Below are positions 518 to 54,083 of a stretch of 64,000 nt of DNA, piece by piece. The notes below the pieces were generated by a model. It was not told the origin of the DNA, searched no databases, and saw nothing but the letters and a program-made list of their open reading frames with translations. The translations under genes and the position numbers were made by a program. Numbering within the stretch: position 1 is the first letter of the stretch; the number at the start of each line of letters is the position of its first letter. The stretch is from a virus (taxonomy: Duplodnaviria; Caudoviricetes): IMG/VR virus record IMGVR_UViG_3300021256_000078, positions 1 through 64,000 of that record; one strand, given 5' to 3'.

Positions 518-3343
518 TTATCTGTCCCCCATTCCTTTGAAGTTATTGAATTCTTTCGCTAAAGTAGTAACTGAAATACCAAGTTCTTCTGCAACTTCGG
601 CCGGAGAGTGACCAGAATTTAAGAGTGCTCTGGCTCTGGCTTTTGTAGAGTCTTTCATGCCAGTGTTAGCTCTCGGCATGGCCCTCTTCTTGATTGCATC
701 AGTATCTGCATATCTCAGAATTGTCTTAAGTTTCGTATCAGAGATGGCTCCTGCTTGAATGGCATCCCATTCTCTATCTGTCACATCAATTCTGTATCTT
801 CGGATTGTGTTATTCTTTTCATCCAATCCAAAGACCAGTTCTCTGGCATGGTTCATTTCTTTCTGTGACAGTTTACGAAGCTTGTCTGCATTCTCTTTCA
901 GCTTCAAGTCGGGATTGGCTTCCTTCTTTGCTGCAATGTTGCTAGCTGCAATGAGGGTTGCCTGCCTTTCTTTCGGAGCTTCAAGCATGGCTCTCGAAAC
1001 CTTTTCATTCAAGGATCTGACTTCATCCTTATATGCAAGCTCAGCATCTCGGTTATACTTCAGATTCCCGGTCTCTCTTGCTTCCTTTCTAGCAAGGTTA
1101 CCAAGGGCCTTCATTCTGTTTGCATGCTCAGCATAGATGTTCTCAATCTCATAACCTGAAGACAACTTGTACGCATCCGTCTCTTCTTCCATTCTGGTAG
1201 AGGTTCGGGTATTAGGTACAAGTTTCCCGGCTTTGTTCTTGTGCATCTTCCCAGTATTGCGATAGATGACTTCGCCTCTGTTATACCGTTCCTTTTCTTC
1301 GTCGGTCATATCATTGTATGAATAGACTTCCTTGCGTTCTGGAAGGTTATGCACTTCACCTTTAGCCTTTGAGATCAGAGTTGAGGATCCGCCTTTCGGT
1401 CCGTTCTGATAATCCTCTCTGAGCTGAGCAATGTTGTTGTCCCGTTCGGAACGCTGCCAGTCGAGGTTGTGTTTCTCGGCATCGATGACAACCATGGAAT
1501 GCTTAACGGCTCTCTCAATTTCATCGAGACTTGCATTCTTGATTGTCATATCTGTAATCAGGTTTGAGGCCATGCCCATCTGAACCTGTTTGTTAAATCC
1601 ATCGCCCTTCTTACCGTCACGGCTCTTGCCTGTACAAGTGGTGTCGTCGGGATCTCTGGCGTATTCATCAGTGCTGAATCCTTTCAGACCGGGCAAGGGA
1701 TCGCTGGTCTTCAGTTTTTGTCCCTTTGTCGGAATGACAAGCACTGTATCGCCGTCAAAATCTGCTCCTGAAAGCTGAGCTGCCACATTCACATTAATAC
1801 CAATAGCATGAGCTGCTTTCAGTCCGATAGAATCGATGGCATCTTTGTTCTTGTTATTAACCTTCAGCCTTGGAATTTCAAATGTTCCTGCATGAGGGTG
1901 TCTTACAAGAATGACTTCTTCGCCATCGTTGTACATAGGTGCAAAGACTTCATTGTCTTTCAGACTTTTGACTGGCAGAATGGCGAATGATCCCTGTCTT
2001 GGAAGAGCAGCCGCTTTCAGAAAGACTGCTGCTGAATCACAGGAATCTGCAAAGTCTTCACAGAGCTGTCTTTTAAGCGTCGGATTGGTCAAACTCTTCA
2101 GTTCCTCGAATTCATCTGCGAATTCCTTATACCGAATGTCCAACTGTCTCTTGGCCAAAGACGGCATCTGCTTAGAAAGAAACTGTGATGACAGATTTTT
2201 CTTCCATCCTTCCCAGTCTTCATCGTCGTTGACGATATTCATTGGGGATCTGACTTTATTTCCATCAGCATCCTCATAATCCCATCCTCTGAATGCCGAT
2301 CCGAACGGATTTGTCGGATCTTTCTTCATGATTTTCAGAACTGTGTGGTCGCTGTCTGGCCCAAGCGGAGGTGTTCCCTTCTTGTAGTGCGAGTTGTAGA
2401 TGATATCGATACCGGGTGGCATATCGTCAGGATTCCCATAAATGGCCATTCCCTTCATATAATGCGTCCCGTCGACCGCAACTCGAACCTGAGCGTAGTT
2501 TCGTCCTCCAAGGGATACGTCCTGAACACCTGGTCGAACCTCAATCACACCATCTTTTGCAGCTCCTCCGTCTTCAGCGTATTTCACAAGAATTCTTGAA
2601 GAGTCGATGCTCGTGATAGGCTGTGAGAAAACAGCTTCTTTGCCGAAATCTTTGAAATACACACCTTTTGGAGAAGTAATCTCTCCAAGATGAGCTCTCA
2701 TTTCAGCATAGGTTGCATCTTCCGGACATAGGATTTTCATGTTGGTATGCTGCTTCGGATTGGTTACCTGATTCAGCTTGTAGGAATAGACATTATAGCC
2801 TTCGTCCTCCAGAAGCAACGTCGCTGCATGAAGCTGATCGGCACTGATATTTAGCTGTTTTTCCACGCCTTCACCAACGTCCAGGAACCGTTTGTGTTCG
2901 AGTTCCTGTTTCAGAACGTCAGCAATGCCCTTGACGGTGTCTTCACGCCTCTTTTTGTTCGGGTTCAGCAGATTTCGCACAGTTCCTTCAGAAACGCCGA
3001 GTTTTTCAGCAATTGCTGTATTGCTGTAGCCCTTGGCGCTCCACTTTTCGGCCTTAATCTGATTTTCCGCGTCAATCTGATTTTTGTAGATTTTCCGCAT
3101 GGCACGGTAATCCTGGGTTTTCATGCCCATAGCGGCTGCAACTTCCTTCTGTGGAAGTCCCTGCGCAACCAGATCATCGGCTCTCTGAAGCCAGTTTCTG
3201 TTTCTTTGGGGATTTTTACCTGATCCCCATGGATAACGTCCCGAATGCCTCGGTGTTCCGTAATGAGCGATATAACCTTCAGAAGGTGCATCATCATTTT
3301 CGCCAATTACCGGGTTTTCCTGTTCAACATACTGGTCATCCAT
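518..3343 (-). CDS. single-subunit double-psi-barrel RNA polymerase (YonO/cellular-RdRP-like) with multiple HTH motifs
   Basis: SGADFDGD metal-binding loop (DFDGD at 1748-1762), VRHP motif, QVR...MKG barrel motif; HTH-like segments such as GYSNTAIAEKLGVSEGTVRNLL and C-terminal GHSPAEVAEELGISVTTL; start moved to ATG 3343 with SD GAGG. Confidence 0.8.
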   Translation of the reverse strand: MDDQYVEQENPVIGENDDAPSEGYIAHYGTPRHSGRYPWGSGKNPQRNRNWLQRADDLVAQGLPQKEVAAAMGMKTQDYRAMRKIYKNQIDAENQIKAEKWSAKGYSNTAIAEKLGVSEGTVRNLLNPNKKRREDTVKGIADVLKQELEHKRFLDVGEGVEKQLNISADQLHAATLLLEDEGYNVYSYKLNQVTNPKQHTNMKILCPEDATYAEMRAHLGEITSPKGVYFKDFGKEAVFSQPITSIDSSRILVKYAEDGGAAKDGVIEVRPGVQDVSLGGRNYAQVRVAVDGTHYMKGMAIYGNPDDMPPGIDIIYNSHYKKGTPPLGPDSDHTVLKIMKKDPTNPFGSAFRGWDYEDADGNKVRSPMNIVNDDEDWEGWKKNLSSQFLSKQMPSLAKRQLDIRYKEFADEFEELKSLTNPTLKRQLCEDFADSCDSAAVFLKAAALPRQGSFAILPVKSLKDNEVFAPMYNDGEEVILVRHPHAGTFEIPRLKVNNKNKDAIDSIGLKAAHAIGINVNVAAQLSGADFDGDTVLVIPTKGQKLKTSDPLPGLKGFSTDEYARDPDDTTCTGKSRDGKKGDGFNKQVQMGMASNLITDMTIKNASLDEIERAVKHSMVVIDAEKHNLDWQRSERDNNIAQLREDYQNGPKGGSSTLISKAKGEVHNLPERKEVYSYNDMTDEEKERYNRGEVIYRNTGKMHKNKAGKLVPNTRTSTRMEEETDAYKLSSGYEIENIYAEHANRMKALGNLARKEARETGNLKYNRDAELAYKDEVRSLNEKVSRAMLEAPKERQATLIAASNIAAKKEANPDLKLKENADKLRKLSQKEMNHARELVFGLDEKNNTIRRYRIDVTDREWDAIQAGAISDTKLKTILRYADTDAIKKRAMPRANTGMKDSTKARARALLNSGHSPAEVAEELGISVTTLAKEFNNFKGMGDR

Positions 3344-3917
3344 TGTTCTCAACCTCTCTCAACGATTCTGAAGCCCAGGCTTCTTTTTCCTTTATCAAGC
3401 AGATGACCTCTTCCATACGATCCTTATCCGGACTGTACTCCTGAATGTCGTCATTCTGATAAATGCGAAGATTCACCTTCGTGTTGAGAGGATTGACGCC
3501 CATAACCCGTTCATATTCCATCAGAAACAGAGCAGCATAAACTTCAAGCTGCTCCATATGAACCGGGCCTGTTCCTGTTTTCAAATCATGAATCCTGAGG
3601 ATTCCTCTCCCGAAGTCAATCGTGTCTGCATGTCCAAAACAGTTATCCGTGTATTTCAATCCGACTTCAGGCGTCATGCCATAACCGATTGCATCATTCA
3701 CATAGTCAACGAAAGTCTGACCTTTGCCTTTCAGCTTATAGGTTCCTTCACTGATCAGACTCGCTGCGAGATTATGGAGCCAGGTTCCTCTGGCAGCAGC
3801 GTTCTGCGAAATGATATACTTTCGGATCTGGTCCTGTGTATAATTCAGCCAGTATGGCTTACTCGGACTCAGAATGGCATGCTTATCTTTCAACTCCAAA
3901 TGCTTGTTGAAGATCAT
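3336..3917 (-). CDS. PD-(D/E)XK exonuclease, Cas4/DUF2800-like
   Basis: HAILSPS, GTWLH, E...GHAD...DLKTG, QL..YA motifs; start at ATG 3917 with AGGAGG. Confidence 0.7.
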   Translation of the reverse strand: MIFNKHLELKDKHAILSPSKPYWLNYTQDQIRKYIISQNAAARGTWLHNLAASLISEGTYKLKGKGQTFVDYVNDAIGYGMTPEVGLKYTDNCFGHADTIDFGRGILRIHDLKTGTGPVHMEQLEVYAALFLMEYERVMGVNPLNTKVNLRIYQNDDIQEYSPDKDRMEEVICLIKEKEAWASESLREVENNG

Positions 3918-4179
3918 CGAGTACCTCCTGTTTGTTTTCAGGATAAACAAATCGACTGAAGGACATTTGATTTGCCCTGTCGACATAGTAATCCTGATTC
4001 GGTTGATGACTCGCGACTTTCGACTGCTTGCATTCGAGAAGCGCCCAGTGGTCTTCCCATAGAACGGTCAGATCCGGCAGACCTTGCCGTGACTCGTTCT
4101 TATAAATCAGAGCTCCCGGAAGCAAGCTTTCAAGTTCGCTGATAAGTTCTTTCTGAAATTTGCTTTCGCGCAACTCCAT
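3883..4179 (-). CDS. VRR-NUC family nuclease / resolvase
   Basis: ESKFQ..., GLPD, LECK, Q motifs in 98 aa. Confidence 0.7.
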   Translation of the reverse strand: MELRESKFQKELISELESLLPGALIYKNESRQGLPDLTVLWEDHWALLECKQSKVASHQPNQDYYVDRANQMSFSRFVYPENKQEVLDDLQQAFGVER

Positions 4180-4269
4180 TCACCTCGAAACGCCATAGAG
4201 GCCGTCGGATTTACGACGAGCTCTATTTTTCATTTTCATTGTTTGGTTTCAGTAAATTACCTGAAACGC

Positions 4270-4309
4270 AAAGAAAATAGACCGAGCGTTATCTCGGTCC
4301 TCCCTCTCT
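4270..4309 (-). ncRNA. promoter-driven mini hairpin RNA (second copy 4394-4433)
   Basis: promoter followed directly by GACCGAG-ATAACG-CTCGGTC and a U-rich tail, no ORF. Confidence 0.5.
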
Positions 4310-4586
4310 ACTATAGACGGTGTAAATTTTACGAATTGCCTATAGCCGAAAATATTCGTAAAGTCTTGGAATCCGTCAAATCTGGCGAATCCCAAAGAAA
4401 ATATACCGAGCGTTATCTCGGTCCTCCCTCTCTACTATAGACGGTGTAAATTTTACGAATTTCAGAAAGTGTAAAAATGCACAAAGCTTAGAGAAGTTGC
4501 CAGAATTGAACTGGTTTCTCTTATTTCTAAGTGCGTTACCGTCACGCTCTCCCTCTCTACTATAGACGGTGTAAATTTTACGAATT
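4300..4586 (-). promoter_or_regulatory. three identical tandem phage promoters (38-bp repeat, 124-125 bp period)
   Basis: ctccctctctactatagacggtgtaaattttacgaatt at 4300, 4424 and 4549. Confidence 0.8.
4490..4558 (-). ncRNA. tRNA-like small RNA lacking an anticodon
   Basis: AGAGAGG/CTTCTCT closing stem; D arm GCGT-GACGGTA-ACGC; CTTA-GAAA-TAAG; T arm CCAG-TTCAATT-CTGG. Confidence 0.6.
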
Positions 4587-14766: not shown

Positions 14767-14814
14767 TGTTCTTTCTCCTTTTAATATATTATTTGCGGAA
14801 GATCTCTCTTCCTA

Positions 14815-41606: not shown

Positions 41607-41813
41607 TTAATCATCCACGCGGATGAAATCGTTGTTGCTCATGCCGCAGTAACTGAGAATGGTCACATACAGCAGGGCCTCATCAAATGATCCAAGCTTG
41701 TTGGTATAATATTGCACAATGCCGATGATTACGATTAGCATCCACAATAAAGCCAACAGGGCACTGATCCCTAACAGCCATCCCAGTGTGTGCCATATAA
41801 GTGTTGCGAACAT
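41607..41813 (-). CDS. cassette ORF, small membrane protein
   Basis: promoter at 41846, AGGAGG SD, TM helix. Confidence 0.65.
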   Translation of the reverse strand: MFATLIWHTLGWLLGISALLALLWMLIVIIGIVQYYTNKLGSFDEALLYVTILSYCGMSNNDFIRVDD

Positions 41814-41917
41814 AATGATTCCTCCTTGTATTTGTTTTGTTCTCATTACAGGAGGTGTTATTTTTACGAAAAGAAAAACGGGAGAAGACGTAATGTCTCC
41901 TCCACAGTTCATCTTTG

Positions 41918-42409: not shown

Positions 42410-42485
42410 TTGGGTTCTTCCTTTCGTAAATATGATTTTGAGGTTCTTTCCTCATCATAGAAAATGTAAAATTTACGAAAAAAAT

Positions 42486-42695
42486 AAGAGTTGTAAGCTT
42501 CGAACTTACGTCTCCGGTTTCATTCACCATCAGACACCACATTTCTGTGGCCCGGCGTGCTACCATTGCACCATTACGGCGTTAAGGCATTTCAGCCTCC
42601 GGGGCATGACCCCCGTGGAGTTTCCGAAACATTAAATCTGAATGTCGGTTGTCCTTCTCGGATGTCGATTCATCCATTTCGTTCGCCTCCTCTCT
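42486..42695 (-). ncRNA. structured RNA with tRNA-like 3' domain and embedded 31-codon ORF
   Basis: D arm GTGC-AATGGTA-GCAC, CCGG/CCGG stem with GCCACA-GAAA-TGTGGT, T arm GTAAG-TTCGAAG-CTTAC; promoter at 42697. Confidence 0.6.
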
Positions 42696-42778
42696 ACTAT
42701 AGTGGTTGTCAATCTTGCGAATTGATGAAAAAATAAAGGAGAGTCCGCCGATTTTGCGAATCTCTCCTCGAAATCACG

Positions 42779-42913
42779 TCATTTCATAATGAACAGGAGT
42801 AATGCACCCACCAGCACAATGCCTGCTGCTCCATAATATGCATATGCCAGGGCGCATAAAATCCCGATCATCAATACCTTTCCTGTGATTTCGGCATGTT
42901 TTTTCTCGCTCAA
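42779..42913 (-). CDS. cassette ORF, 44-aa membrane peptide (not in ORF track)
   Basis: promoter at 42956, AAGGAG SD, TTG start. Confidence 0.55.
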   Translation of the reverse strand: MSEKKHAEITGKVLMIGILCALAYAYYGAAGIVLVGALLLFIMK

Positions 42914-43028
42914 TTTACATCTCTCCTTTAATATTGATTCAGAGCCTTTGCTCTACTATAGGAGATGTATTTTTTTCGAACCAAAAAAGGAAAGCCATTG
43001 TAAGACTTTCCTTTTGCCTGAAGCTGAT

Positions 43029-43265
43029 TTATTCTGTTATTCCCAGTCTTTCGTTGATGCTGTCCTTGTTTTCTTCGGCCAGAGTCGCAAAAGTCTGTGC
43101 CACCATCAGTGCCTGCTCGCCATCGAGTCCATCGAGTACACTGAATATATCCTTCAGTTCTTGTTTGTGTTCCTCCATAAACCCGATAAATTTGTCAAAG
43201 GTCTCTGTGGCTCTCTGCACAACATTTTCTGCTCCTACAGTTTCTACAATGTTCCAATCATCCAT
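43029..43265 (-). CDS. cassette ORF, acidic
   Basis: promoter at 43314. Confidence 0.7.
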   Translation of the reverse strand: MDDWNIVETVGAENVVQRATETFDKFIGFMEEHKQELKDIFSVLDGLDGEQALMVAQTFATLAEENKDSINERLGITE

Positions 43266-43394
43266 CTCTTGAATTTCCTTTCTTAAATCTAAGATAGCAG
43301 ATCTTCTGCTTCACTATATGAGTTGTCAGATTTACGAAAGAAGATAGACCATGCAAATAGTTTTCGGTCTTCGTTCTGATTCTATATGGAATGA

Positions 43395-43634
43395 TTATTC
43401 GTAGTCTTCCTCAAATCCTGCATCGTATCGATTCGGGTTATGCAGCGCCTGCGAAATGTGCTTCCGAACGGCCTCTTCCGTTACTTCTTTCGATTCGTTC
43501 ACTACTCCATTTTCAAACGTGCTGCAAAATGCACCGTTCCGATATGTATAATAATTTTCGTACATTGAAGTTGAGACTGTAAATGTCTTTCCTGATTTGA
43601 TTCCTTCAATAATTTGATCTATTGTTTTATCCAT
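43395..43634 (-). CDS. cassette ORF, hypothetical
   Basis: promoter at 43662. Confidence 0.7.
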   Translation of the reverse strand: MDKTIDQIIEGIKSGKTFTVSTSMYENYYTYRNGAFCSTFENGVVNESKEVTEEAVRKHISQALHNPNRYDAGFEEDYE

Positions 43635-43737
43635 TATTACTCTCCTTTCGGTCTATCTTCATCATAAGCGTTGCGGATTTTTCGAATAATGCGAAAAAAA
43701 TAGAACCCGTGAAAATCACGAGCCCTATTCTTCGGAA

Positions 43738-44097
43738 TTACTTCCGTTTTCTCTCCTTGCGGAGCAGCTTCATATCCTGAAGTGCTTCTCCGGTTGTCTG
43801 TCCTTCCATGAGCTTGCTGTCCAGCTCCAGAATCTCCTGATTGGTCAGGGGATGCTTTGTCACGAAATCGAGTCCGGAAACGTCATCCTGTACCTTGCAG
43901 GCTTCGATCTTGCCCTGCTCAATGCTGTTGATCGTCCTGATCACTCCCAGTGCGACCATTCCAGCTGCCGTGAGCACGGGTTTCACGACCTGTGGATACT
44001 TTTTGACGGTTTCCTGGATGATTTCTTTCTTTTTCACCGCCTTTTCCTTAGTTTCTTCTGCTTTTTTCTTCACTGTGCTCCAGATTTCTTCGAACAT
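43738..44097 (-). CDS. cassette ORF, hypothetical
   Basis: promoter at 44140. Confidence 0.7.
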   Translation of the reverse strand: MFEEIWSTVKKKAEETKEKAVKKKEIIQETVKKYPQVVKPVLTAAGMVALGVIRTINSIEQGKIEACKVQDDVSGLDFVTKHPLTNQEILELDSKLMEGQTTGEALQDMKLLRKERKRK

Positions 44098-44215
44098 TTA
44101 CTTTTGGCTCCTTTCTGATATGGTAGCTTACTTGCTCCATTATAGACTCTGTTAATTTTTCGAAAAAAAAATAAAGAGACTGTCAAATTGACAGCCCCTT
44201 TACTCTGATTTTTGC

Positions 44216-44620
44216 TTACTTTCTGTTGATCAGCTTGTTTCGCAATTCCTTGATAGGTTCCATCATGCCGCGATAAGCCTGCTTTGTCTCGTCCATGTTG
44301 TACATGAGCGTCGGGCCTATAAACGTCCCGCCGGCAAACCATGTGATGTCCTCACAGACTCTGATGACCCGGTTGATCTTCTCCGCTTCGATCTTCGCCG
44401 TCTCGTTCGCAACCTTGTCTTCTTCGATATCGTTCTTCCGGTTGTTGTCGAGTCGGGTGTTCTCGCGGGTTTCCCATCCTCCGTTGATGTCGCTCAGAGT
44501 CTTGAGTGCATTGACACACTTCAGGTATTCCGAGGTTGTCGCCCCATATTTTTTCATTTCCTCAAGTATGAGACTCCTGGCTTCTTCGATCGCTTCATAG
44601 TTCGTCTTTGCGTCAACCAA
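44216..44620 (-). CDS. cassette ORF, hypothetical
   Basis: promoter at 44663, GGAGG SD, TTG start. Confidence 0.7.
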   Translation of the reverse strand: MVDAKTNYEAIEEARSLILEEMKKYGATTSEYLKCVNALKTLSDINGGWETRENTRLDNNRKNDIEEDKVANETAKIEAEKINRVIRVCEDITWFAGGTFIGPTLMYNMDETKQAYRGMMEPIKELRNKLINRK

Positions 44621-44674
44621 TTTTTGCCACCTCCAAAAATATAATGCAGGGATCTCTCCCTATTATAGAACCTG

Positions 44675-44908
44675 TCATTTTTTCGAAAGATTGTTCTGAA
44701 CCTTTACCGACAGAAATTTTCGTTTCAGTAGCTCATCCTCGCTGATTCCTGAAAAATCCCATAGTGCTTTTTCCCTGCCGTCCTCTTCCTGAATAGTAAT
44801 GATCCCGTCCGGTTTTCGGTGGCCTTCACCCTTTCCGAGAATTCCGATAACATAACCGAGCAGCATGCCAACCGCAAATAAAATGACGTACAGTACCTCC
44901 TGGCGCAT
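44675..44908 (-). CDS. small membrane protein
   Basis: AGGAGGT SD, TM helix. Confidence 0.6.
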   Translation of the reverse strand: MRQEVLYVILFAVGMLLGYVIGILGKGEGHRKPDGIITIQEEDGREKALWDFSGISEDELLKRKFLSVKVQNNLSKK

Positions 44909-44945
44909 AATTTCACCTCCTTTCGAAAAAAAAAAAAGAGACCGG

Positions 44946-45113
44946 TCAGGTCTCATTTGAAGCTGCCATTTGTTCCCAGAACTGATCCCAGAAGGCTTGT
45001 GCTTCTCCTTCTGCCCAGGTTCTTTCAGGCTTAATCTCCTTGAATCCTGCCGGTTTCTCTTTCTCCTTTACCAGTTTTTCACTGGTCCTGATTTCTCGGA
45101 TTTCTCTAAACAT
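44946..45113 (-). CDS. 55-aa ORF (not in ORF track)
   Basis: AGGAGG SD, MFREIRE... Confidence 0.55.
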   Translation of the reverse strand: MFREIREIRTSEKLVKEKEKPAGFKEIKPERTWAEGEAQAFWDQFWEQMAASNET

Positions 45114-45125
45114 AAATTTCCCTCC

Positions 45126-45290
45126 TTATTCGTCATCGTCATCAAGTTCGATTTTCGGTCCGATCAGGCTTGTGATGATTTTGCTCAGGAACATGATCTC
45201 ACCGGGGTCCAATGTCCCGATGAACTTCAGTACCTTCGCAATAAGCCCTCTCATTACCTTACGGTCTTCCTTGCTCATTTTCTTAAACAT
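45126..45290 (-). CDS. 54-aa cassette ORF (not in ORF track)
   Basis: promoter at 45327, AAGGAG SD. Confidence 0.55.
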   Translation of the reverse strand: MFKKMSKEDRKVMRGLIAKVLKFIGTLDPGEIMFLSKIITSLIGPKIELDDDDE

Positions 45291-45399
45291 GACTGAATTC
45301 TCCTTTTCTGTTTAAATTTCTTCCTACTATAGAAGCTGTAAATTCTTCGAATAACGATAAAAAGAGAAGTCGGTGTGACTTCTCTCAGAAATTCTGTGC

Positions 45400-45579
45400 T
45401 TAAATCATCTGTTGATAGATCCAGGTTGTGTCTTCACTTCCCAGGGATACGACCCTCCATTTTTCCTTCAGGATGTAGTGTTCATCCCGTAATTCGAACA
45501 CTTCATCCGTGTGGCCCGGTCTGATCGGTCCCATAAACTTGTTGTAAATTGCCGCCTTGATTTTTCTTATTTTTAACAT
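45400..45579 (-). CDS. cassette ORF, hypothetical
   Basis: promoter at 45603. Confidence 0.6.
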   Translation of the reverse strand: MLKIRKIKAAIYNKFMGPIRPGHTDEVFELRDEHYILKEKWRVVSLGSEDTTWIYQQMI

Positions 45580-45684
45580 TTTAAACAACTCCTTTCTTTC
45601 CACTATAGGAGTTGTAAATCTTACGAAATGGCAAAAATATAAGGGACTGTCAGCTTCGACAATCCCTTTTCCGTGACAAGGCCC

Positions 45685-45885
45685 TTACTTATCCATGTAG
45701 CCGGAAATGTATGCCATGAATGCAATAAGTCCAACCAGCCATAGCGCAAGTCCCAGTGTGATGCTGACGTACATCAGAACCGCTTCCCATCCGGTGTCTA
45801 CCGCATAGACGAGAAACACTCCGATTGCCATCGCCAGCAACGCCATCAGGATTGCAAAGATTTTTTCTGAGTTTTTCTTTTTCAT
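45685..45885 (-). CDS. cassette ORF, two-TM membrane protein
   Basis: promoter at 45922. Confidence 0.65.
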   Translation of the reverse strand: MKKKNSEKIFAILMALLAMAIGVFLVYAVDTGWEAVLMYVSITLGLALWLVGLIAFMAYISGYMDK

Positions 45886-45939
45886 AGTTTTTACTTCCTT
45901 TCTGACAATAAATCCTTGTCACTATAGGAGCTGTCAATC

Positions 45940-46389
45940 TTACGAAATATCAGTCCGTTTTCTCGGATCGTCGTACTGAAGGCCGTAAAACTCATAGAGT
46001 TCATTCTCCCGATCCCACAGTTCCATGAGTTTTGTTTCCATATACTGATCGGCTTTCGAAATATCATCAACCGTCCGAAGCACATCCATGACTTCCTCTT
46101 CAAACTGCGTAACAAGAAGCTGGCTCAGAATCGCACATTTCTGTGTTTTCATGTCCGGCTCTTCCGGAGCATTCGATGCGGTTTTCAGATCCGGTCTGTA
46201 ATGCTTCCAGATGGCTTCTGTTTCAGCGAAATATAATTCCAGCATCGGGCCAATCTGTCGATCAAGTTCCTGAACGGATCGGACCTCAATGAGTTTGTTG
46301 ACAACATCCCGTTCGAATTCCGATTTTGTCAACTTAATCAGAAGCCCGATTTTGTGCAGGGCAAAAAAGTCTTTGTTCGGTGTTTCCAT
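45940..46389 (-). CDS. hypothetical protein
   Basis: GGAGG SD before METPNK. Confidence 0.65.
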   Translation of the reverse strand: METPNKDFFALHKIGLLIKLTKSEFERDVVNKLIEVRSVQELDRQIGPMLELYFAETEAIWKHYRPDLKTASNAPEEPDMKTQKCAILSQLLVTQFEEEVMDVLRTVDDISKADQYMETKLMELWDRENELYEFYGLQYDDPRKRTDIS

Positions 46390-46756: not shown

Positions 46757-46801
46757 TTGTCTCACCTCCTTTTATTGTTCTCATTATGGGAGGTGTGATT
46801 T

Positions 46802-47122
46802 TTACGATCTTCTTTTCGAAAGTTCCCAGAAAAATAATCGATACTGATATCGAAGCTCTGTCGGCAGAACAGTCTGGCTATCGGTTACAAACCGCAAAAT
46901 ATCCTTTCCGACCAATCTGGCGCATTCCTCGATCAGTTCAATATTGCTACCGATCTGGGCACGCCGGATTCCATCACGAGAAGTCGTATCGCCTTCATTT
47001 TTGCTGATTTCGTCAGGCCAGCCGTCCAGTTTGGCATAAATACGTTTCCACTCCGGATACTGCAGACAGAAGTGTTTCAGCTCATAAAAACGGTGCTTAC
47101 TCAGTTGGTATTCAGTTTTCAT
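46802..47122 (-). CDS. hypothetical phage protein, possible transcription regulator
   Basis: SKHRFYELKHFCLQY.EWK ... YR.FFW.LS. Confidence 0.6.
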   Translation of the reverse strand: MKTEYQLSKHRFYELKHFCLQYPEWKRIYAKLDGWPDEISKNEGDTTSRDGIRRAQIGSNIELIEECARLVGKDILRFVTDSQTVLPTELRYQYRLFFWELSKRRS

Positions 47123-47935: not shown

Positions 47936-48072
47936 ACCTCCTTTCTACCATAAAAGCTGTAAAAAATGCGAAAATGTCAATAAAAAATGCTTGCAGGAGC
48001 GAATGGAAATTCTTCAGATGAACCAATCATCATTCAGAACTCACAGAATCGCTCCTACAAGCACTGTTTTCC

Positions 48073-48324
48073 TTATAATCTTGTACTTTTGTAGACATCA
48101 TCGTTTCGAATCGCATGGTACAGATCTCCGACCGCGTACAGGGGCCATAATCCAGAGATAATGAAATTTGCTACAATGATACCTGCGGCATATGGGATAA
48201 GGCGATCTCCCTGGTGCCTTCGGTCTATGTTGTAGTGCTTCTTGAGATAATCCCAACTAAAAATCAGATCATACAGAAACGATAGCCCCCATCCAATAAA
48301 GTACAAAATCCATGAAACACTCAT
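48073..48324 (-). CDS. membrane protein
   Basis: two hydrophobic segments. Confidence 0.6.
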   Translation of the reverse strand: MSVSWILYFIGWGLSFLYDLIFSWDYLKKHYNIDRRHQGDRLIPYAAGIIVANFIISGLWPLYAVGDLYHAIRNDDVYKSTRL

Positions 48325-48343
48325 AGTTCATTCCTTTCATATA

Positions 48344-48760
48344 TCAAAATAGTTCCGGCATCACCTCCTTCATACTCACATAGTCATGTGGCGTAAATAT
48401 AAAGTGATCCAGAACACGAATACCGAGCATCCTGCCGGCTTCAATAATTACCTTCGTTGCAGAAATATCCTCAGTTGACGGATATGCCGTGCCTCCCGGG
48501 TGGTTGTGGCAGATAATAATGGAAACGGCATTCTGCAGAAGTGCAGTCTTGAACATTGTGCTGACCGGGAAGTGCGTCGCGTTCGTATCTCCGATTCCGA
48601 CCATATGGTAACTGATTGGTTTCCCACTGGACGTTACGTTCACGACATAAACATATTCCCGGTCAAAGTCGGCAAACTGCTCTTTTAGGATCCTTGCGGC
48701 GTCAAAGGTATTTCTGATCGGCTCTCTTGCATAAACGGCATTAATCTCTTCGATGTACAT
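48344..48760 (-). CDS. RadC-like JAB domain protein
   Basis: E...HNHPGG...PS.ED...LGIRVLDH. Confidence 0.8.
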   Translation of the reverse strand: MYIEEINAVYAREPIRNTFDAARILKEQFADFDREYVYVVNVTSSGKPISYHMVGIGDTNATHFPVSTMFKTALLQNAVSIIICHNHPGGTAYPSTEDISATKVIIEAGRMLGIRVLDHFIFTPHDYVSMKEVMPELF

Positions 48761-48794
48761 CCGGACATGAACTTCCGGAATTCTGGATTCATCC

Positions 48795-49112
48795 TTAGTC
48801 CGTGGTCCTCAAAAAATAGCTCATATCATCGTCCTTGAGGTTTTCCATGGCCCAGAGATCGGCCTTCTCCCAAAGACTCTGATATAGTTTGCTGTATGCT
48901 TCATTGAATTCGTTCCAGTACCAGATCTTCCAGTTCAGAACCATGACCAGTTCCGTGAGGTATACGACATTATCTTTCCAGCCTTCAAAGGCCCGATCGA
49001 ACGTATTCGTAATGGATGCCTCACCGAAAATATCAGCGGTACTGAAATCTTCCCAGAAGCTTGTCTGAGGTTCCAGACCGGTCATTTCGCACATGTTCTC
49101 GAAAAAGCTCAT
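48795..49112 (-). CDS. hypothetical phage protein
   Basis: TAATG coupling, 105 aa. Confidence 0.7.
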   Translation of the reverse strand: MSFFENMCEMTGLEPQTSFWEDFSTADIFGEASITNTFDRAFEGWKDNVVYLTELVMVLNWKIWYWNEFNEAYSKLYQSLWEKADLWAMENLKDDDMSYFLRTTD

Positions 49113-49507
49113 TATATCGATTCTCCAAAGATTTCACGAAAGAGTCCACGTTCCATCAGAACAGAATCCTGACCGGAATAATCGTTGACAAAAAGCTTCT
49201 CAGCAGCAGACTTCTTAAGGACAGCCCAGGACCCTGTCGGATAAATCCCATTTTGGATTTCGACAATATTCTCATGGATCGGCTCCTGAGTAACTTCGAT
49301 AACTGTTACACCGAGACACATCTGTTCCAAACAGCTGTCGCAGGGTTCATAATCTAGGATACAACGTTTGGGAGCTTCAAGGTCCTCACCCCTACCGCCA
49401 AGTTTTCCGAGAAGTGCAATCTCGTTCTTTTCCTGGCCACACCAGAAACAGACCGGAATGCTTGGATTAACACCATACTTTTTAGAGAGACGAATAGAAT
49501 TACTTAT
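49112..49507 (-). CDS. zinc-binding hypothetical protein with ATA start
   Basis: frame open from ATA at 49507 (GAAAGGA SD 9 nt upstream), CFWC...CDSC. Confidence 0.5.
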   Translation of the reverse strand: MSNSIRLSKKYGVNPSIPVCFWCGQEKNEIALLGKLGGRGEDLEAPKRCILDYEPCDSCLEQMCLGVTVIEVTQEPIHENIVEIQNGIYPTGSWAVLKKSAAEKLFVNDYSGQDSVLMERGLFREIFGESI

Positions 49508-49951
49508 AGTACATCATCCTTTCTTTTATTAATAATTATTTATGGTTTAGGCATAGCACTCACCTCAAATATAATTAGATTTGTCTAACTCTTTCCGAAA
49601 CGTAAAGCCTCTAACGCTTCACGCCCTCCATTGTCATAAACCTCAAGTAAGTGAATGGCAGTTCTCAGCGCAATCAGACATTCGAGAATGCTCTCTGCAC
49701 CTTCGATGTTCTTGAGCTGCTGATAGAGTTCAGGCCACACTTCCTTAAGGGCGTCTTCGAACATGGATTCGTCGTAGTTGTTGCCGCATTCCTCCTTTAA
49801 TAATATTTGTATCGGTCGGCTAATGAACGACTTACTATATAAAAATAAACCATGACGAAAATGATCTGGTCATGATTGCACAGCGAATAATTGGTGATGA
49901 TTTGATTTTTGGTCCCATTTCATTCCCGCCATGGTTTATTGACAAAAAAGT

Positions 49952-50182
49952 CGTGTGCACTTTCGTGTGCATTATTTTCTTTCACGTGTGCATTTTTCGT
50001 TTCAACCCTAATAAATATCTTTCAACTGTGAAACCGGTAAACCACCAGTAAAACTTAAGAGGCCCAGTATTTACTGAGCCTCTCAAATGGTGGAGATGAG
50101 GGGAGTTGAACCCAGTAAAATTACCCCTCAAACTACTAGCAATTACTGGCTTTCTTGAAAACCGTGTGCACTGTCGTGTGCA
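49952..50182. mobile_element. intact attP with ssrA(tmRNA)-3'-end core
   Basis: core 50088-50113 reads GGGTTCAACTCCCCTCATCTCCACCA on minus; CGTGTGCA arm repeats at 49952, 49964, 49985, 50163, 50175; replacement terminator at 50059-50083. Confidence 0.8.
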
Positions 50183-51219
50183 TTTTTGAATAGTTCTTCC
50201 ATTTTTTCGTTGATGACATCCGCAAACTGGTCTTCTTTGTCACGCATCACATGCTGATAAACAGTCTTGAGCATGTTGTCAGTTTTATGCCCCATCCGTT
50301 TCATGGAATACTTGTCAGGAACTCCTAAGCTGTGAGATTCACTAGCCGCAAAGTGTCTGAGATCGTGAAATCTGCATGGCTTAACCCCAACCTTTTCACA
50401 GATTCTCTGAAAGCCTTTGTAGATCGCAGCTCCGGTCATAGGACAAATATAATCGTTTTCAGATGCTCTTGGAAGCGCATCGATCTTTACAATCAGCGTT
50501 TCCGGAACCTTGATCCAACGATCTCCAGACACACTTTTGGTTGCCTTCAGGGTTTCTCCTTCTTCACCGGTCACTATGGCTCTCTGAATGTGAACCCGGC
50601 CATCCGAAATATCACTGAATCTCAGTCCTTTAATTTCACTGAGCCTGAGTCCAAGCCAGGAAGCAAGCAGAATCGGAATCTCATATCTGGTTCCTTCTGC
50701 TCCCTTCCAGACAGCCTGCATCTGTTCTTCGGTAAATATCATGGCTTCTTTAGGCTTTTTCTGCGGGAGTCTCGTAATGAGAACGAACTGAGGCCTGTAT
50801 ACCCGAAGCACTGCGCTTAGAAATCCATGGGCATTTCGAATGGTTTTTGGACTGACACCTCTCGCAATATCAGTTCCGATGGCACACTGAATATCTTCCT
50901 GCGTCAGATCCGAAATCTTGATGCCTTTCAGATCTTGAAGTAGGTTTTTCCGAATTCTCTTATACCCGAGAACCGTGGATGGTGACAAAGCTTCCTTCTT
51001 ACTTTCAATGTACTGGTCCATTGCCTTTCCGACAGTCAACGGAGTTTTCTTTTCGGTTTCTATTCCTCTCAGAATATCAAGATACTTTTCCTCTGCTTTT
51101 TCGATGACGACTACCTTGTCTTCATCGGTTACAGAGTATCTTGTTCCATCAACCTGAAACTGAATTCTCCAATTTCCTGACGGGAGTTTTTTCGGTTTTG
51201 GAAGTTTGACCTTAGGCAA
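50143..51219 (-). CDS. int: tyrosine integrase
   Basis: GLRLSEI, K, FHDLRH, MGH, VYQH catalytic set; N-terminal arm-binding domain. Confidence 0.9.
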   Translation of the reverse strand: MPKVKLPKPKKLPSGNWRIQFQVDGTRYSVTDEDKVVVIEKAEEKYLDILRGIETEKKTPLTVGKAMDQYIESKKEALSPSTVLGYKRIRKNLLQDLKGIKISDLTQEDIQCAIGTDIARGVSPKTIRNAHGFLSAVLRVYRPQFVLITRLPQKKPKEAMIFTEEQMQAVWKGAEGTRYEIPILLASWLGLRLSEIKGLRFSDISDGRVHIQRAIVTGEEGETLKATKSVSGDRWIKVPETLIVKIDALPRASENDYICPMTGAAIYKGFQRICEKVGVKPCRFHDLRHFAASESHSLGVPDKYSMKRMGHKTDNMLKTVYQHVMRDKEDQFADVINEKMEELFKNAHDSAHGFQESQ

Positions 51220-51260
51220 AGAAACCAGTCCTTAAATGAAATATCATTCTGAATTGTACT

Positions 51261-51575
51261 TCATTCCTGCGGATTTGTCAAACCCTGTTTCTTCTCATAG
51301 TATTCTTTGAGGGCAGTTGCGTAGTCCTGCTTATCGGGAACAGCAGGAAAGATTGTTCCGAAAACCTTGTATTGAGCAAAGGTCTCTTTGTCGCGATCTG
51401 CCATCTCAAGAATTTGCTTTATGACAACGTAGGCCGATTCGATTTGAACAGGATCATTCACTTTAAAGTCAATCTCGTTCGTAATTGAGTCGATCAGTTG
51501 CTCAGAACGACGGTCAATGGAGTCACAGATGGCTTGATATACCCGCTGGTCTTCACCCAACGTCTTGAATATCAT
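51261..51575 (-). CDS. hypothetical protein
   Basis: ATGA coupling with upstream gene. Confidence 0.65.
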   Translation of the reverse strand: MIFKTLGEDQRVYQAICDSIDRRSEQLIDSITNEIDFKVNDPVQIESAYVVIKQILEMADRDKETFAQYKVFGTIFPAVPDKQDYATALKEYYEKKQGLTNPQE

Positions 51576-52066
51576 TCTGTGGTCTCCTTTACGGTCTGGA
51601 CCTCAACGCCGGTGTCATCACTCTGTACTTCGGCCTCTGAAGGAATGAACCGCAATTTAACCTTCACATCTGAGAGATCAAGCGGTTCCTTCATATACTG
51701 ATTCTCGACAGCATAGTTCAGAACGGACTTCAGGAAATAAAATGCGTTCTTGACAGTCTTTTCGGATTTTCCGGAGCTGAGTTCGTCCCAAATGGCTTCC
51801 TGGATCAGTGTCGGTGTCAGGCTGCTGAGTCTGTGATACCGGATTCCCTGAAAATACTTGCTCTGATAGTTCTTGTAGGTTTTGACAGTGTTCTCGGACT
51901 TGGTCTCCCGACAGGCGTAAATATAATAGTCCATGACGTAGTCCAGTAAGCAGTAGTCTGCAGGATCCTCTTCGACTTTCTGCTGGAGTTCGGTTGAATA
52001 GCTGAATGTTTCCTTGAAGAAGTTTCTGATCTTCTTGAATGCTGCAAAAACTTTAGTGAGTGACAT
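51572..52066 (-). CDS. stand-alone integrase core-binding (SAM-like) domain protein
   Basis: SENTVKTY...LSSLTPTLIQ...GKSEKTVKNA...LKSVLNYA; no catalytic domain. Confidence 0.65.
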   Translation of the reverse strand: MSLTKVFAAFKKIRNFFKETFSYSTELQQKVEEDPADYCLLDYVMDYYIYACRETKSENTVKTYKNYQSKYFQGIRYHRLSSLTPTLIQEAIWDELSSGKSEKTVKNAFYFLKSVLNYAVENQYMKEPLDLSDVKVKLRFIPSEAEVQSDDTGVEVQTVKETTE

Positions 52067-52180
52067 TTTCTTTTTCTCCTTTATTATAATAGTAGTCATC
52101 GCCTGTTAATTAGGCCTTTAATCTAGTAGGTGCTATCAACGACAAACGGGCCTTTCATCTGATGCATTACAGTAGCCCTT

Positions 52181-52378
52181 TTAATTTAGGTAGGCATTAT
52201 CGACACCCAGAAGAATATTCATGTCAAACGGTGTCAATAAACCTCTTTTGTGCATTGCATCTTGAAAAGCGGCATATGCTATAGCTTCACGTTCTCTTTT
52301 CGATGGCGGTTTTGGCTTCGGTGGGATTTCACCGTTTTTAGCAGCAATCGCTGTCGGATTATACTTATGTTGACCCAT
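52181..52378 (-). CDS. hypothetical protein
   Basis: GAGG SD before MGQHKY. Confidence 0.55.
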   Translation of the reverse strand: MGQHKYNPTAIAAKNGEIPPKPKPPSKREREAIAYAAFQDAMHKRGLLTPFDMNILLGVDNAYLN

Positions 52379-52409
52379 TATAGTCGACCTCTTCCTCGCT
52401 GTACCACTA

Positions 52410-53138
52410 TTAATAACGAACCCGTCTGGCATAACCGTCAACTCCGAATTCGTTTGTCAAATAAATACCCTGAGGTGTCAGCTCTGCAAATCTATAGCTT
52501 ACATCCCAGGGCTTTGAGGTTTCGTGGTGCCAAGTCCAAATCTCTTCTCTGACAATGTCATAGTATTCAGTAAGGACCGGATTGTTTTCAGAATATCCGA
52601 GAAACTGCGCTTCCTGAGCGACAATGGAATTGAAATCGTTAACTCCGCCACCAAAGTCCACTCTGTCACACATGCAGCGGATATAGGTCCTGATGTCCCG
52701 TTCACTGTATCCGTATTTGTCGATAAAGTTCCGGATACCGTAAATGGCCTTTGCTCCGTCTTTGGCTTCCTTGTCGATAATGGCTTCCTCCGTCTTAAGA
52801 GCTGCTTCAGCCTGAGCCGCGATCTCTTTGGCCTTGGCATCCTGATTAGCCTGATAGTCAGCAAGGGCAGTTGCCGCGAAAGCTTCCGCAATCCGATTGG
52901 TCCGAATATCAAGGGCCCAGGAGACAAGTGACGCGATAAGCAGGATGACCATCAGAATGGCAAATGCTCTGGTCAGTGGCAGAACCCAGGGATGCTTGTG
53001 GTCCAGCCTCTGAATTTCGTCGTTGTATTCCTTGGTAAGGTCCTGAAGGATTTCCAGGTTGGTTCTCTTTTTATATTCTTTGACTGCCTTTGGTCTTTCC
53101 GCCTTTTTCGGCATGTAAATTCTCATCGTTTCGTCCAT
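52410..53138 (-). CDS. membrane-anchored hypothetical protein
   Basis: one TM helix, AAGGAG SD. Confidence 0.65.
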   Translation of the reverse strand: MDETMRIYMPKKAERPKAVKEYKKRTNLEILQDLTKEYNDEIQRLDHKHPWVLPLTRAFAILMVILLIASLVSWALDIRTNRIAEAFAATALADYQANQDAKAKEIAAQAEAALKTEEAIIDKEAKDGAKAIYGIRNFIDKYGYSERDIRTYIRCMCDRVDFGGGVNDFNSIVAQEAQFLGYSENNPVLTEYYDIVREEIWTWHHETSKPWDVSYRFAELTPQGIYLTNEFGVDGYARRVRY

Positions 53139-53748
53139 TGTGAATAGATTCTCCTTCCATTTTGATTTTGTCGAATAACTTGAAAACCTTATTGATGTCA
53201 TGGCGCTTCTTTCGGTTCTTCGCCGCATAATAGTATTTTCGATCCTGCTTTGACGACTTAGGAAGTTTTCGATAGTCTTCTTGAATAATCCGCTTGTTCT
53301 TGTCGTGAGCCAGGATATAGTTCAGAATGCTTTCGAAAGACTCCTGGGGTGCTACATCTTTCTGCCTGTGAAATCTTCCCTTCACAAGTTCCTTTGGGTT
53401 CAGATCAGGATCAAAGTGGTCACGTCCGAATGAGTTCATGTGATATAAACGCCAAAGTCTATCCTCCTTTCCGTAAACTGCTTTCCAGAATCCAATACTT
53501 GTTTTCACACAGATCGAATTGGAAAACTTGTCGAACATGCAGTCGAGTTTTTCTATAGTTCGGTAATAGTATGCGATGCCGGGTGGTCTCTGACAAAAAC
53601 TGCAGGGCTTGTAGCCTTGTTTTCTGAGTTCTCTGAAGTTACTTGTCTGCCATTTATTGTCGCTCTTGATATTTTTGGCATAGGGACACCAGCTGTCGTG
53701 ATAAATCTTCTTATCCTTGCTGACGACCCTGCCATATTTGTGTCTCAT
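53071..53748 (-). CDS. protein with Ada-like zinc-binding N-terminus
   Basis: IYH..WC...GYKPCSFC. Confidence 0.6.
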   Translation of the reverse strand: MRHKYGRVVSKDKKIYHDSWCPYAKNIKSDNKWQTSNFRELRKQGYKPCSFCQRPPGIAYYYRTIEKLDCMFDKFSNSICVKTSIGFWKAVYGKEDRLWRLYHMNSFGRDHFDPDLNPKELVKGRFHRQKDVAPQESFESILNYILAHDKNKRIIQEDYRKLPKSSKQDRKYYYAAKNRKKRHDINKVFKLFDKIKMEGESIHNGRNDENLHAEKGGKTKGSQRI

Positions 53749-53819
53749 AGTTCCATCACCTCCTTTCAGATAAAAGAAAAGAGAGCCGCTGTATAAACGA
53801 CTCTCATTTCATCCTCTTT

Positions 53820-53936
53820 CTACTTTCCAATCAGAAAAGTATCAATATACGCCTCCCCTCCAGTTGAATTCCACATGTTCCAGGCAATTCCTCCTTTACA
53901 CATATAATCCAATACCTTTTTGAGTATTGCTAACAT
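53820..53936 (-). CDS. 38-aa cassette ORF (not in ORF track)
   Basis: promoter at 53980, AAGGAG SD, terminator at about 53775-53805. Confidence 0.5.
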   Translation of the reverse strand: MLAILKKVLDYMCKGGIAWNMWNSTGGEAYIDTFLIGK

Positions 53937-53979
53937 AATTGATGCTCCTTCCTATAAGTAAAGTTTATTGTGTTCTCTA

Positions 53980-54083
53980 CTATAGAAAATGTAAAAATTA
54001 CGAATTTACCAAAATATGTTCTAAAAACAAAAAGAAAGGGCCACTGAATTCCCTTTCCACTATAGGAATTGTAAATTTTACGA
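53980..54083 (-). promoter_or_regulatory. two phage promoters; the copy at 54060 is followed only by a hairpin and U-tract
   Basis: copies at 53980 and 54060; GAAAGGG/CCCTTTC hairpin at 54034-54057. Confidence 0.7.

Follow-up and report, generated by a model that had tools for sequence, protein, structure and literature searches.

We analyzed the first 64 kb (hereafter the window) of IMG/VR record IMGVR_UViG_3300021256_000078, a 95,237-bp genome of a virus of the Caudoviricetes (Duplodnaviria) that CheckV rates as complete. All credible genes of the whole genome lie on the minus strand, which divides, in the direction of transcription, into a structural and lysis arm of ~41 kb, running from 95237 down to ~54100, and a non-structural arm running from 54084 down to 1. 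The first arm encodes an HNH nuclease, the large terminase, portal, major tail protein, an 1853-aa tape measure, Dit, tail proteins, an endolysin and a second 1853-aa protein with a GDSL esterase end; the second holds many small unannotated genes together with a tyrosine integrase, a primase/polymerase fusion, a helicase and a Cas4-type exonuclease. The penultimate gene of the non-structural arm (518–3352, minus strand) encodes a predicted single-chain two-barrel RNA polymerase (RNAP) with helix-turn-helix (HTH) modules at both ends, and the same arm carries 32 copies of a promoter-like motif. This enzyme and these sites, which we consider together as a candidate phage-encoded transcription system, are our subject here.

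The RNAP open reading frame (ORF) is 944 aa long when read from a TTG at 3352 and 941 aa when read from the ATG at 3343. Residues 24–936 match PHROG 4291 along profile positions 8–906 of 909 (E = 0, 1035 bits), and its homologs fall into at least 8000 sequence clusters. The catalytic metal-binding loop DFDGD (residues 531–535; 1748–1762, minus strand) has D531, D533, G534 and D535 invariant in 30 homologs, and a sub-threshold match to the Pfam family RdRP (PF05183) falls exactly on it; among control genomes, PF05183 found a match only in B. subtilis, the host of SPbeta. We searched with Foldseek using an AlphaFold model built on the homolog alignment (mean predicted local distance difference test score, pLDDT, 74; mostly 80–90 in the core), and the top matches were QDE-1 (E = 3e-8), P32 gp64 (2.7e-5), P74 gp62 (2.5e-4), plant RDR2 and P23-45 gp96 (8e-3), followed by cellular beta-prime and Rpb1 chains, with Foldseek probabilities of 1.0 to QDE-1, P32 gp64, P74 gp62 and RDR2 at a global TM-score of only ~0.3. 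Profile and model together place ORF 518–3352 in the two-barrel RNA polymerase class, and the best explanation of the data is that it is a predicted DNA-dependent RNA polymerase of the "1706 family". Every other ORF of more than 700 aa is assigned (tape measure, tail proteins, primase/polymerase), and a search of the genome for a Pol I-like T7-type RNAP (PF00940), run without a positive control, gave no match.

Above the Pfam threshold, the enzyme matches HTH families only. The N-terminal helical HTH region (residues 48–155; 2888–3211, minus strand), defined by Pfam and the model helices, includes a unit resembling sigma region 4 and LuxR at residues 105–129 (HTH_23 1.2e-12, Sigma70_r4_2 1.6e-9, GerE 3.4e-7). 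The C-terminal region (residues 859–935; 548–778, minus strand) matches PHROG 664, a DNA-binding protein (2.9e-13), and holds an HTH_7-like unit at residues 905–931 (Pfam HTH_7 2e-6). Weaker HTH-like units lie at residues 69–90, where Pfam gives a faint match, and at ~859–891, which is helical in the model. An earlier note on this DNA had described a 941-aa DFDGD polymerase with about four HTH motifs, and both parts of that description are borne out; its comparison with YonO-type enzymes fits the two-barrel class but not the YonO family proper, of which the 1706 family is a sister.

The repeated motif is far too frequent and too one-sided for chance. Exact matches to TTCGHAA-N5-RCA-N5-TATRRT number 19, all on the minus strand, against 0.02 expected; with up to two mismatches there are 30, of which 29 are on the minus strand (0.79 expected). 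A 44-column position matrix refined on the whole 95,237-bp genome yields 32 sites of 27–48 bits, every one on the minus (coding) strand between 4310 and 54084, while the highest scores elsewhere are 5.6 bits on the plus strand and 11 bits in shuffled sequence, and 54085–95237, the 41-kb structural/lysis arm, contains no site. All 32 sites align without gaps. C3, G4, A6, C14, T23 and T26 never vary, at least 30 of the 32 sites have purines at the five positions that follow the hexamer, and the hexamer itself is TATAGT in 13, TATAAT in 10 and TATGAT in 3; TTTACA lies 5 bp and TTCGTA 14 bp from it. The full element is therefore a block of ~32 bp, TTCGTAA-N2-TTTACA-N4-C-TATRRT-RRRRR. The earlier note's consensus recurs exactly at the 19 sites above but falls short in extent, because TTTACA and the purine-rich start region belong to the conserved block as well. 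Its near-invariant spacing, the 14-bp distance from TTCGTA to TATRRT and the lack of copies among the tail and lysis genes all hold on the aligned sites and the matrix scan, as does its assignment to the minus strand; its count of 31 becomes 32.

In transcription order, all on the minus strand, the sites open with a pair at the head of the non-structural arm: 54059–54084 (44.5 bits), the first after the lysis genes, followed by a hairpin and T-run at +26, and 53979–54004 (37.7 bits). Further sites lie 11 nt upstream of g53 (47947–47972; 31.7 bits), 26 nt upstream of g56 (46783–46808; 29.4 bits), ~35 nt upstream of an ATG (45921–45946; 40.2 bits), 22 nt upstream of g59 (45602–45627; 47.8 bits), 35 nt upstream of g60 (45326–45351; 41.5 bits) and 41 nt upstream of g63 (44662–44687; 40.6 bits), the last with an AGGGA-GAGA-TCCCT stem-loop from the hexamer end. 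The site 41 nt upstream of g64 (44139–44164; 38.3 bits) has an 18-pair terminator-like hairpin ending 4 nt upstream of it, and is followed by sites 26 nt upstream of g65 (43661–43686; 29.2 bits), 47 nt upstream of g66 (43313–43338; 37.3 bits), 41 nt upstream of g67 (42955–42980; 37.6 bits; stem-loop from the hexamer end), ~18 nt upstream of an ATG (42696–42721; 38.8 bits), 44 nt upstream of g69 (42454–42479; 43.9 bits; stem-loop from the hexamer end), 31 nt upstream of g70 (41845–41870; 37.3 bits) and 49 nt upstream of g71 (41534–41559; 38.0 bits; stem-loop from the hexamer end). A site 15 nt upstream of g75 (40202–40227; 38.3 bits) heads a gene run of ~6.7 kb, and another precedes g95 by 84 nt (33539–33564; 37.1 bits). 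Three successive genes, g110, g111 and g112, have sites 44 nt (26863–26888; 42.7 bits; stem-loop from 1 nt after the hexamer), 32 nt (26526–26551; 42.3 bits) and 27 nt (26178–26203; 39.4 bits) upstream. These are followed by sites 39 nt upstream of g128 (20484–20509; 41.4 bits), 14 nt upstream of g130 (19963–19988; 29.7 bits), 16 nt upstream of g131 (19715–19740; 36.9 bits), 18 nt upstream of g132 (19377–19402; at 27.8 bits the weakest), 42 nt upstream of g133 (19138–19163; 40.9 bits; stem-loop from 1 nt after the hexamer) and 19 nt upstream of g134 (18783–18808; 41.7 bits). The site upstream of g137–g139 (17567–17592; 42.3 bits) has a strong leader hairpin (dG -21) with a T-run at +30, and that 47 nt upstream of g140 (14814–14839; 44.3 bits) has a stem-loop from 1 nt after the hexamer.

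The last three sites, 4559–4584 (47.3 bits), 4434–4459 (48.0 bits; hairpin and T-run at +30) and 4310–4335 (47.7 bits; hairpin and T-run at +32; repeat family D2), are identical 38-bp promoter copies with a period of 124–125 bp that head the nuclease-exonuclease-RNAP operon (window 4263–4586). Each of the latter two is followed by the hairpin GGACCGAG-ATAACG-CTCGGTC and a T-run; these hairpins could give rise to RNAs of ~40 nt or act as attenuators ahead of the operon. In closer relatives, the tandem copies number two and are 81 bp apart. Between the tandem copies and the RNAP gene lies the co-transcribed Cas4/PD-(D/E)xK-type exonuclease gene (3336–3986, minus strand; PHROG 3953 1.6e-56, Pfam DUF2800), and the order of exonuclease and RNAP genes matches that in Bilo, Mudcat, P118 and D_HF4_2. 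The 323-nt "leader" ahead of the exonuclease gene, read by eye, is mostly a small VRR-Nuc-like ORF, and an Rfam search of the window found no known RNA family.

We found that 26 of the 32 sites stand 11–60 nt ahead of a start codon that has a Shine-Dalgarno (SD) sequence and that the remainder precede a hairpin with a T-run or another promoter copy, in keeping with the claim that each copy stands before an SD-preceded ORF or a structured RNA. About 15 sites sit 4–28 nt after a terminator-like hairpin and T-run. Our terminator finder is not strand-specific (42 calls on the coding strand vs 49 on the other), and so we used only the position of terminators relative to promoters. Terminator-like sites are enriched about two-fold in 40–56 kb (28 vs 14 ± 3), where nearly each small gene forms its own promoter-gene-terminator cassette. 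Judged by their placement on the coding strand only, just upstream of SD-preceded ORFs and often after a terminator-like hairpin, the 32 sites behave as promoters.

That the repeats are instead some other cis element (operators for a repressor, signals for replication or packaging, or sites at which cassettes are exchanged by recombination) seems to us very improbable. They do act as recombination substrates: in a relative 90–95% identical to this phage (run X2), whole small-gene cassettes are missing within window 41530–45946, with joints 41530->41842, 43337->43694 and 41539->45919, and both ends of each joint fall inside promoter copies, so cassettes seem to be gained and lost by recombination at the repeats. 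Such recombination is, however, to be expected as a side effect wherever promoters are repeated, and an operator or packaging signal would sit poorly with sites that all share the coding strand and stand a short, fixed distance before an SD sequence and ATG, right after terminator-like hairpins, with an A/T-rich melting box, and that are missing from the structural arm. Of three RNA runs, only one, an animal gut metatranscriptome (X1), contained any of the promoter-dense region, as three contigs of 200–237 nt that all lie inside ORFs.

The likely start of transcription is marked by small stem-loops. Thirteen of the 21 stem-loops detected begin 0–2 nt after the hexamer (binomial P=4e-4), as they do in 9 of the 11 sites with a leader of 39–49 nt, which argues for a start at the hexamer end rather than 7 nt downstream. 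As a marker this has its counterweight: stems of at least 5 pairs at an offset of at most 2 occur at 19% of sites vs 11% of random positions, and only the offset distribution is significant.

To follow the motif beyond this genome, we scanned five IMG/VR relatives with the window's own matrix and found strong sites upstream of the exonuclease-RNAP operon in each (RNAPs 59–65% identical). No GenBank phage has an RNAP as much as 60% identical, and identity to Bilo, Mudcat, ReqiPoco6, P118 and D_HF4_2 is 36–45%. With a core-only matrix spanning TTTACA to RGAGA, sites on the coding strand/other strand numbered 33/1 in this phage, 10/1 in Rhodococcus phage ReqiPoco6, 3/0 in Streptomyces phage Bilo, 9/0 and 12/0 in Lactococcus phages P118 and 1706, 6/0 in Arthrobacter phage Mudcat and 6/0 in the oral phage D_HF4_2, whereas the same-host controls lacking the enzyme (sk1, phiC31 and ReqiPine5) had 0, 0 and 1. 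The core TTTACA-N5-TATAAT-RGAG is thus present in 7/7 RNAP-encoding phages examined, at 33–61% GC. In every one of these genomes, the sites begin just past the lysis genes and one lies before the RNAP operon. Upstream of the core, most lineages have TCGCA or TCGCG; the element reads TCGTAA in the window's lineage and TTTTAAG in P118.

At a larger scale, we searched 50,697 phage records with a 58-nt ReqiPoco6 sequence of promoter and leader, which gave hits at 957 places in 185 of them (Arthrobacter 57, Gordonia 55, Streptomyces 47, Siphovirus 12, Lactococcus 8, Rhodococcus 4 and two others). Each of these groups falls within the RNAP-carrying set, which likewise has Gordonia 55, Siphovirus 12 and Rhodococcus 4, and no unrelated phage group appears. 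That set comprises 250 phage records matching PHROG 4291, 249 of them at ≥80% coverage, all from the 1706/actinophage group, with no SPbeta-like Bacillus phage among the groups listed. The RNAP gene also occurs in 289 representative bacterial genomes, mostly of gut Clostridia (Lachnospiraceae, Oscillospiraceae, Ruminococcus) and including cultured isolates; at 80 such loci, from Clostridia and others, the core was found 114 times on the coding strand vs 11 on the other. Among cultured gut Clostridia, RNAP homologs lie in chromosomal contigs of [Ruminococcus] torques ATCC 27756, Hungatella hathewayi WAL-18680, Blautia faecis, Enterocloster lavalensis and Cuneatibacter caecimuris (two copies), and their location inside large contigs suggests that many family members are prophages in growable strains. 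Across the 21 Mb of five whole Clostridia isolate genomes, we counted two exact matches to the core vs 5 for a reversed control, one of the two lying inside the R. torques prophage; the exact pattern is too narrow for this to say much beyond that the core is not a common host promoter form. The check for co-occurrence that the earlier note had called for thus comes out in its favor, since the motif accompanies RNAP homologs in phages of two host phyla, and the comparison shows a motif that is specific to a phage lineage and independent of the host.

Across lineages, the recognition helix of the C-terminal HTH is nearly invariant and that of the N-terminal HTH varies. The two parts of the motif show the same pattern, the core being near-invariant like the C-terminal helix and the upstream element varying like the N-terminal one, a correspondence that is suggestive for P118 and for the window's lineage. 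It bears on a reading in which the motif is the promoter of the RNAP but is recognized through a separate phage or host specificity factor, the HTHs serving DNA tethering, regulation or packaging. Room for such a factor exists, since the genome has ~100 small early/middle ORFs, mostly without annotation, Forrest et al. left YonO's need for extra factors open, and HTH covariation gives no clean signal. Against it, HTHs are kept at both ends of every family member in two phyla, the conserved gene set holds no other DNA-binding protein (bioRxiv 10.1101/842583), and the near-invariant C-terminal recognition helix parallels the near-invariant core element. We regard a separate factor as quite unlikely.

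The RNAP also carries a candidate signal for loading into virions. An N-terminal peptide, HYGTPRHSGRYPWGSGKNPQ (residues 29–49; 3206–3268, minus strand), is predicted to be disordered (pLDDT <50 in the AlphaFold model), and in the homolog alignment its pattern HYG-x-x-R-x-SGRYP[WY]GSG is invariant in 30 close homologs and 7 distant lineages, including 1706 orf75. That homolog is labelled "structural protein", without "putative", in the authors' GenBank record of phage 1706, as are two small ORFs among the replication genes, which suggests virion proteomics rather than positional guesswork; the label on the ReqiPoco6 RNAP was copied from 1706. The label and the invariant disordered peptide make virion delivery a reasonable idea, and from these and the precedent of P23-45 gp96, the first RNAP molecules probably arrive with the virion.

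Two other proteins of this phage, g17 (genome 84400–85023) and g14 (87668–88822), flank the large terminase gene and begin with the motif of Pfam DUF7211, HYGI[RK]GQKWG[VQ]RR (PF23847; 30.1 and 31.4 bits, respectively). The RNAP N-terminus gives no match to PF23847 even at E≤10 and shares only the skeleton Y-[IL]-x-H-[YH]-G...WG, with a 4-residue insertion; the two may be a shared virion-loading tag. As a link between DUF7211 and the virion we considered 1706 orf62 and orf71, both labelled "structural", and rejected them, as both are without DUF7211.

Given the fold and catalytic loop of the enzyme, the promoter-like positions of the sites, the constancy of the motif and its bias to one strand, and its host-independent inheritance with the enzyme, we propose that the 32 sites are probably promoters of the phage's own transcription system, read by the HTH-fused RNAP. 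The earlier note had offered the same pairing: promoter behavior, enzyme class and co-occurrence support it, but the RNAP is not singled out as the reader. The note had also raised host sigma-A with a phage activator. Under that alternative, the host holoenzyme reads TATRRT as a -10 element and a phage factor on TTTACA/TCGTAA replaces the -35 contact, like T4 MotA/AsiA; the helper could even be the RNAP's own HTH modules, with the RNAP transcribing other genes, for example late ones from a single promoter, like YonO. We consider this unlikely, if far from negligible. The geometry is unlike that of sigma-A, as the note had said: the best -35 match at 16–18 bp reaches at most 3/6 in 32/32 sites, and an extended -10 TG, which -35-less Firmicutes promoters usually need, is found in 0/32. 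Conservation continues through the region where sigma-70 promoters have a loosely conserved discriminator, and the five conserved purines and the stem-loops 0–2 nt past the hexamer fit a start 7 nt downstream poorly. The 5-bp spacing between TTTACA and TATAAT is kept in hosts whose sigma-A promoters differ, whereas the early promoters annotated in Lactococcus phage sk1, a phage dependent on host RNAP, have a spacing of 17 bp. Genome-wide, canonical sigma-70-like sites are not enriched, and profile searches turned up neither a sigma region 2 nor a second HTH like sigma region 4, and no homolog of MotA or AsiA (PF09114, PF09010), though a non-homologous analogue would escape such profiles. An activator is weakened by the geometry and these negative searches, while the hexamer remains a perfect sigma-A -10. 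We also considered the phiSASD1 promoters (PMC13722658) as a test of host recognition and set them aside as irrelevant, since they belong to another phage type and have a canonical -35, 18-bp spacing and -10.

Several points weigh against the RNAP as the reader, and some of them favor sigma-A. The hexamer is close to TATAAT, which is also the universal sigma-A -10, and TATAAT and TATAGT, the consensus -10 in both host phyla, make up 23 of the 32 hexamers. The upstream element lies 13–14 bp from the hexamer, much as in the MotA-box middle promoters of T4. The primase/polymerase occurs in 253 phage records vs 250 for the RNAP, with the same composition, and no RNAP-lacking relatives of this lineage are found among GenBank phages; motif, RNAP and primase/polymerase always travel together, so co-occurrence cannot single out the RNAP, and any lineage-conserved factor of this jointly inherited package could be the reader. 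Phylogeny confounds the covariation between HTH and upstream element, and L063 runs counter to it. The RNAP operon lies behind three motif copies, so something else must transcribe the RNAP gene first unless the enzyme is injected, and the evidence for a virion location is a database label on a 36–49% identical homolog from another phage. YonO transcribes the SPbeta late operon from one promoter, the opposite temporal class (PMC5467207), although for the enzyme described here we found no repeated or conserved candidate late promoter. Our literature search found no assay or transcript mapping of any 1706-family member and no paper describing a 1706-family promoter.

In the system we favor, the fused HTH modules would do the job of sigma, docking the RNAP on a ~32-bp duplex signal made up of the upstream TCGTAA element, the TTTACA box and the A/T-rich TATRRT box, and transcription would start at or within a few bases of the TATRRT end, in the conserved purine run. 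These promoters would drive the early genes, small single-gene cassettes each closed by a hairpin and U-run, the middle genes for replication, recombination and nucleotide functions, and the nuclease-exonuclease-RNAP operon itself, creating positive feedback set off by RNAP molecules that probably enter with the virion. The structural/lysis arm would be transcribed by another route, most likely by host RNA polymerase as in P23-45; its intergenic gaps hold no motif copy above 12 bits, no repeated element and no enrichment of sigma-70-like sites. More tentatively, and with more doubt than conviction, the parts can be joined into a single picture of an RNAP with sigma in its chain, in which the C-terminal HTH would read the TTTACA/TATAAT core, the N-terminal HTH would read the upstream element, and the enzyme would be loaded into the capsid via its N-terminal peptide and injected. 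If that picture is true, early and middle transcription would be independent of host RNAP in phages of Actinobacteria and Firmicutes, including abundant phages and prophages of gut Clostridia.

The protein itself is a new member of a family predicted in print; what would be new is the pairing of enzyme and promoter and the fusion of a sigma-like function into a two-barrel chain. The family is very large and includes ~250 isolated phages, some with cultivable hosts (Lactococcus, Arthrobacter, Streptomyces, Gordonia). A 32-bp candidate promoter with six invariant bases and a predicted start makes promoter finding by such enzymes testable with one purified protein and a short template. If confirmed, the pairing would explain early and middle gene expression in hosts as unlike as Streptomyces and Lactococcus and might provide a compact orthogonal expression system for Gram-positive bacteria.

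Elsewhere in the genome, we made three further observations. A motif-free stretch of 6 kb (window 47973–53978) contains the tyrosine integrase gene (50143–51219) and a partial integrase-like ORF (51572–52066); the sole near-perfect sigma-70-type site of the region, TTGACA-17-TACAAT (11/12) at 51253–51281 on the minus strand, lies shortly before the integrase gene, an arrangement that would suit transcription of this module by host RNA polymerase. Two unlike proteins are both exactly 1853 aa long (window 55258–60819 and genome 69670–75231): one is the tape measure (PHROG 4372), the other a tail-region protein with a GDSL/SGNH esterase domain at residues 1630–1839, and their equal length looks like coincidence. 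At the record ends (1–60 and 95180–95237), the palindrome CCCCGGGGG occurs within ~45 bp of either terminus, and between the last gene and the right end lie a 13-bp inverted repeat (GATACTAGATAGC...GCTATCTAGTATC) and a terminator-like hairpin; this region may be a cos or packaging region.

Compared with known systems, the sites recall sigma-70 and MotA promoters in their TATAAT-like hexamer, in a TTTACA box resembling TTGACA and in an upstream element near the position of the MotA box, but TTTACA stands 5 bp, not 17 bp, from the hexamer. With T7/SP6-type promoters they share a contiguous conserved block of ~25–32 bp, fixed spacing, a purine-rich start and many copies on one strand, and the motif ends in ...CTATAGT/AGAGA, in the manner of a T7/SP6 promoter. 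We take this resemblance to ...CACTATAGGGAGA to be probably coincidental. The T7 and SP6 RNAPs have a Pol I-like right-hand fold, unrelated to the two-barrel fold found here. Single-chain two-barrel RNAPs are regarded as models for the enzyme from which all cellular RNA polymerases descend; to our knowledge, studies exist only of YonO, crAss gp66 and the Thermus-phage enzymes, and we know of none that reads duplex promoters via built-in HTHs.

The closest known enzymes are those of the Lactococcus phage 1706 ORF75 family, which share full-length homology, the DFDGD loop, N- and C-terminal HTHs and the invariant N-terminal peptide, along with the gene order helicase, nuclease, Cas4 exonuclease, RNAP and small ORF at the right end of the genome; this phage differs in being much larger (95 kb, from the gut) and in having an integrase. 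Ruprich-Robert and Thuriaux (2010) had distinguished five families of YonO-like two-barrel proteins, with those of phage 1706 and SPbeta in separate ones, and an HTH-flanked "putative RNA polymerase" has since been described as a signature of an actinophage/Lactococcus/Faecalibacterium supercluster (bioRxiv 10.1101/842583, 2021), in a text where the word "promoter" occurs 0 times. YonO, the only bacterial relative assayed, is a processive DNA-dependent RNAP (Forrest et al. 2017, PMC5467207), and its promoter recognition and factor requirement were left open. Like the enzyme described here, YonO is a phage-encoded single-chain two-barrel polymerase of ~100 kDa related to QDE-1-type enzymes, but no fused HTH modules are reported for it, and here there are 32 early/middle candidate promoters. 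The nearest functional parallel comes from Thermus phage P23-45, whose single-chain two-barrel RNAPs recognize motifs specific to the phage at genes of the pre-early, early and middle classes, with host RNAP serving the late class, a conclusion that also drew on co-occurrence of motif and enzyme as evidence (bioRxiv 10.1101/2022.12.01.518664). The non-virion RNAPs P23-45 gp64 and P74-26 gp62 and the virion RNAP gp96 (PDB 8F72, 8F5M, 8H2M) are structural neighbors of our RNAP model at no more than ~14% identity. The Thermus phages have two enzymes without HTH modules, one of them fused to the tape measure protein, and two motifs, one AT-rich and one GC-rich, whereas this phage pairs a single enzyme with a single tripartite motif.

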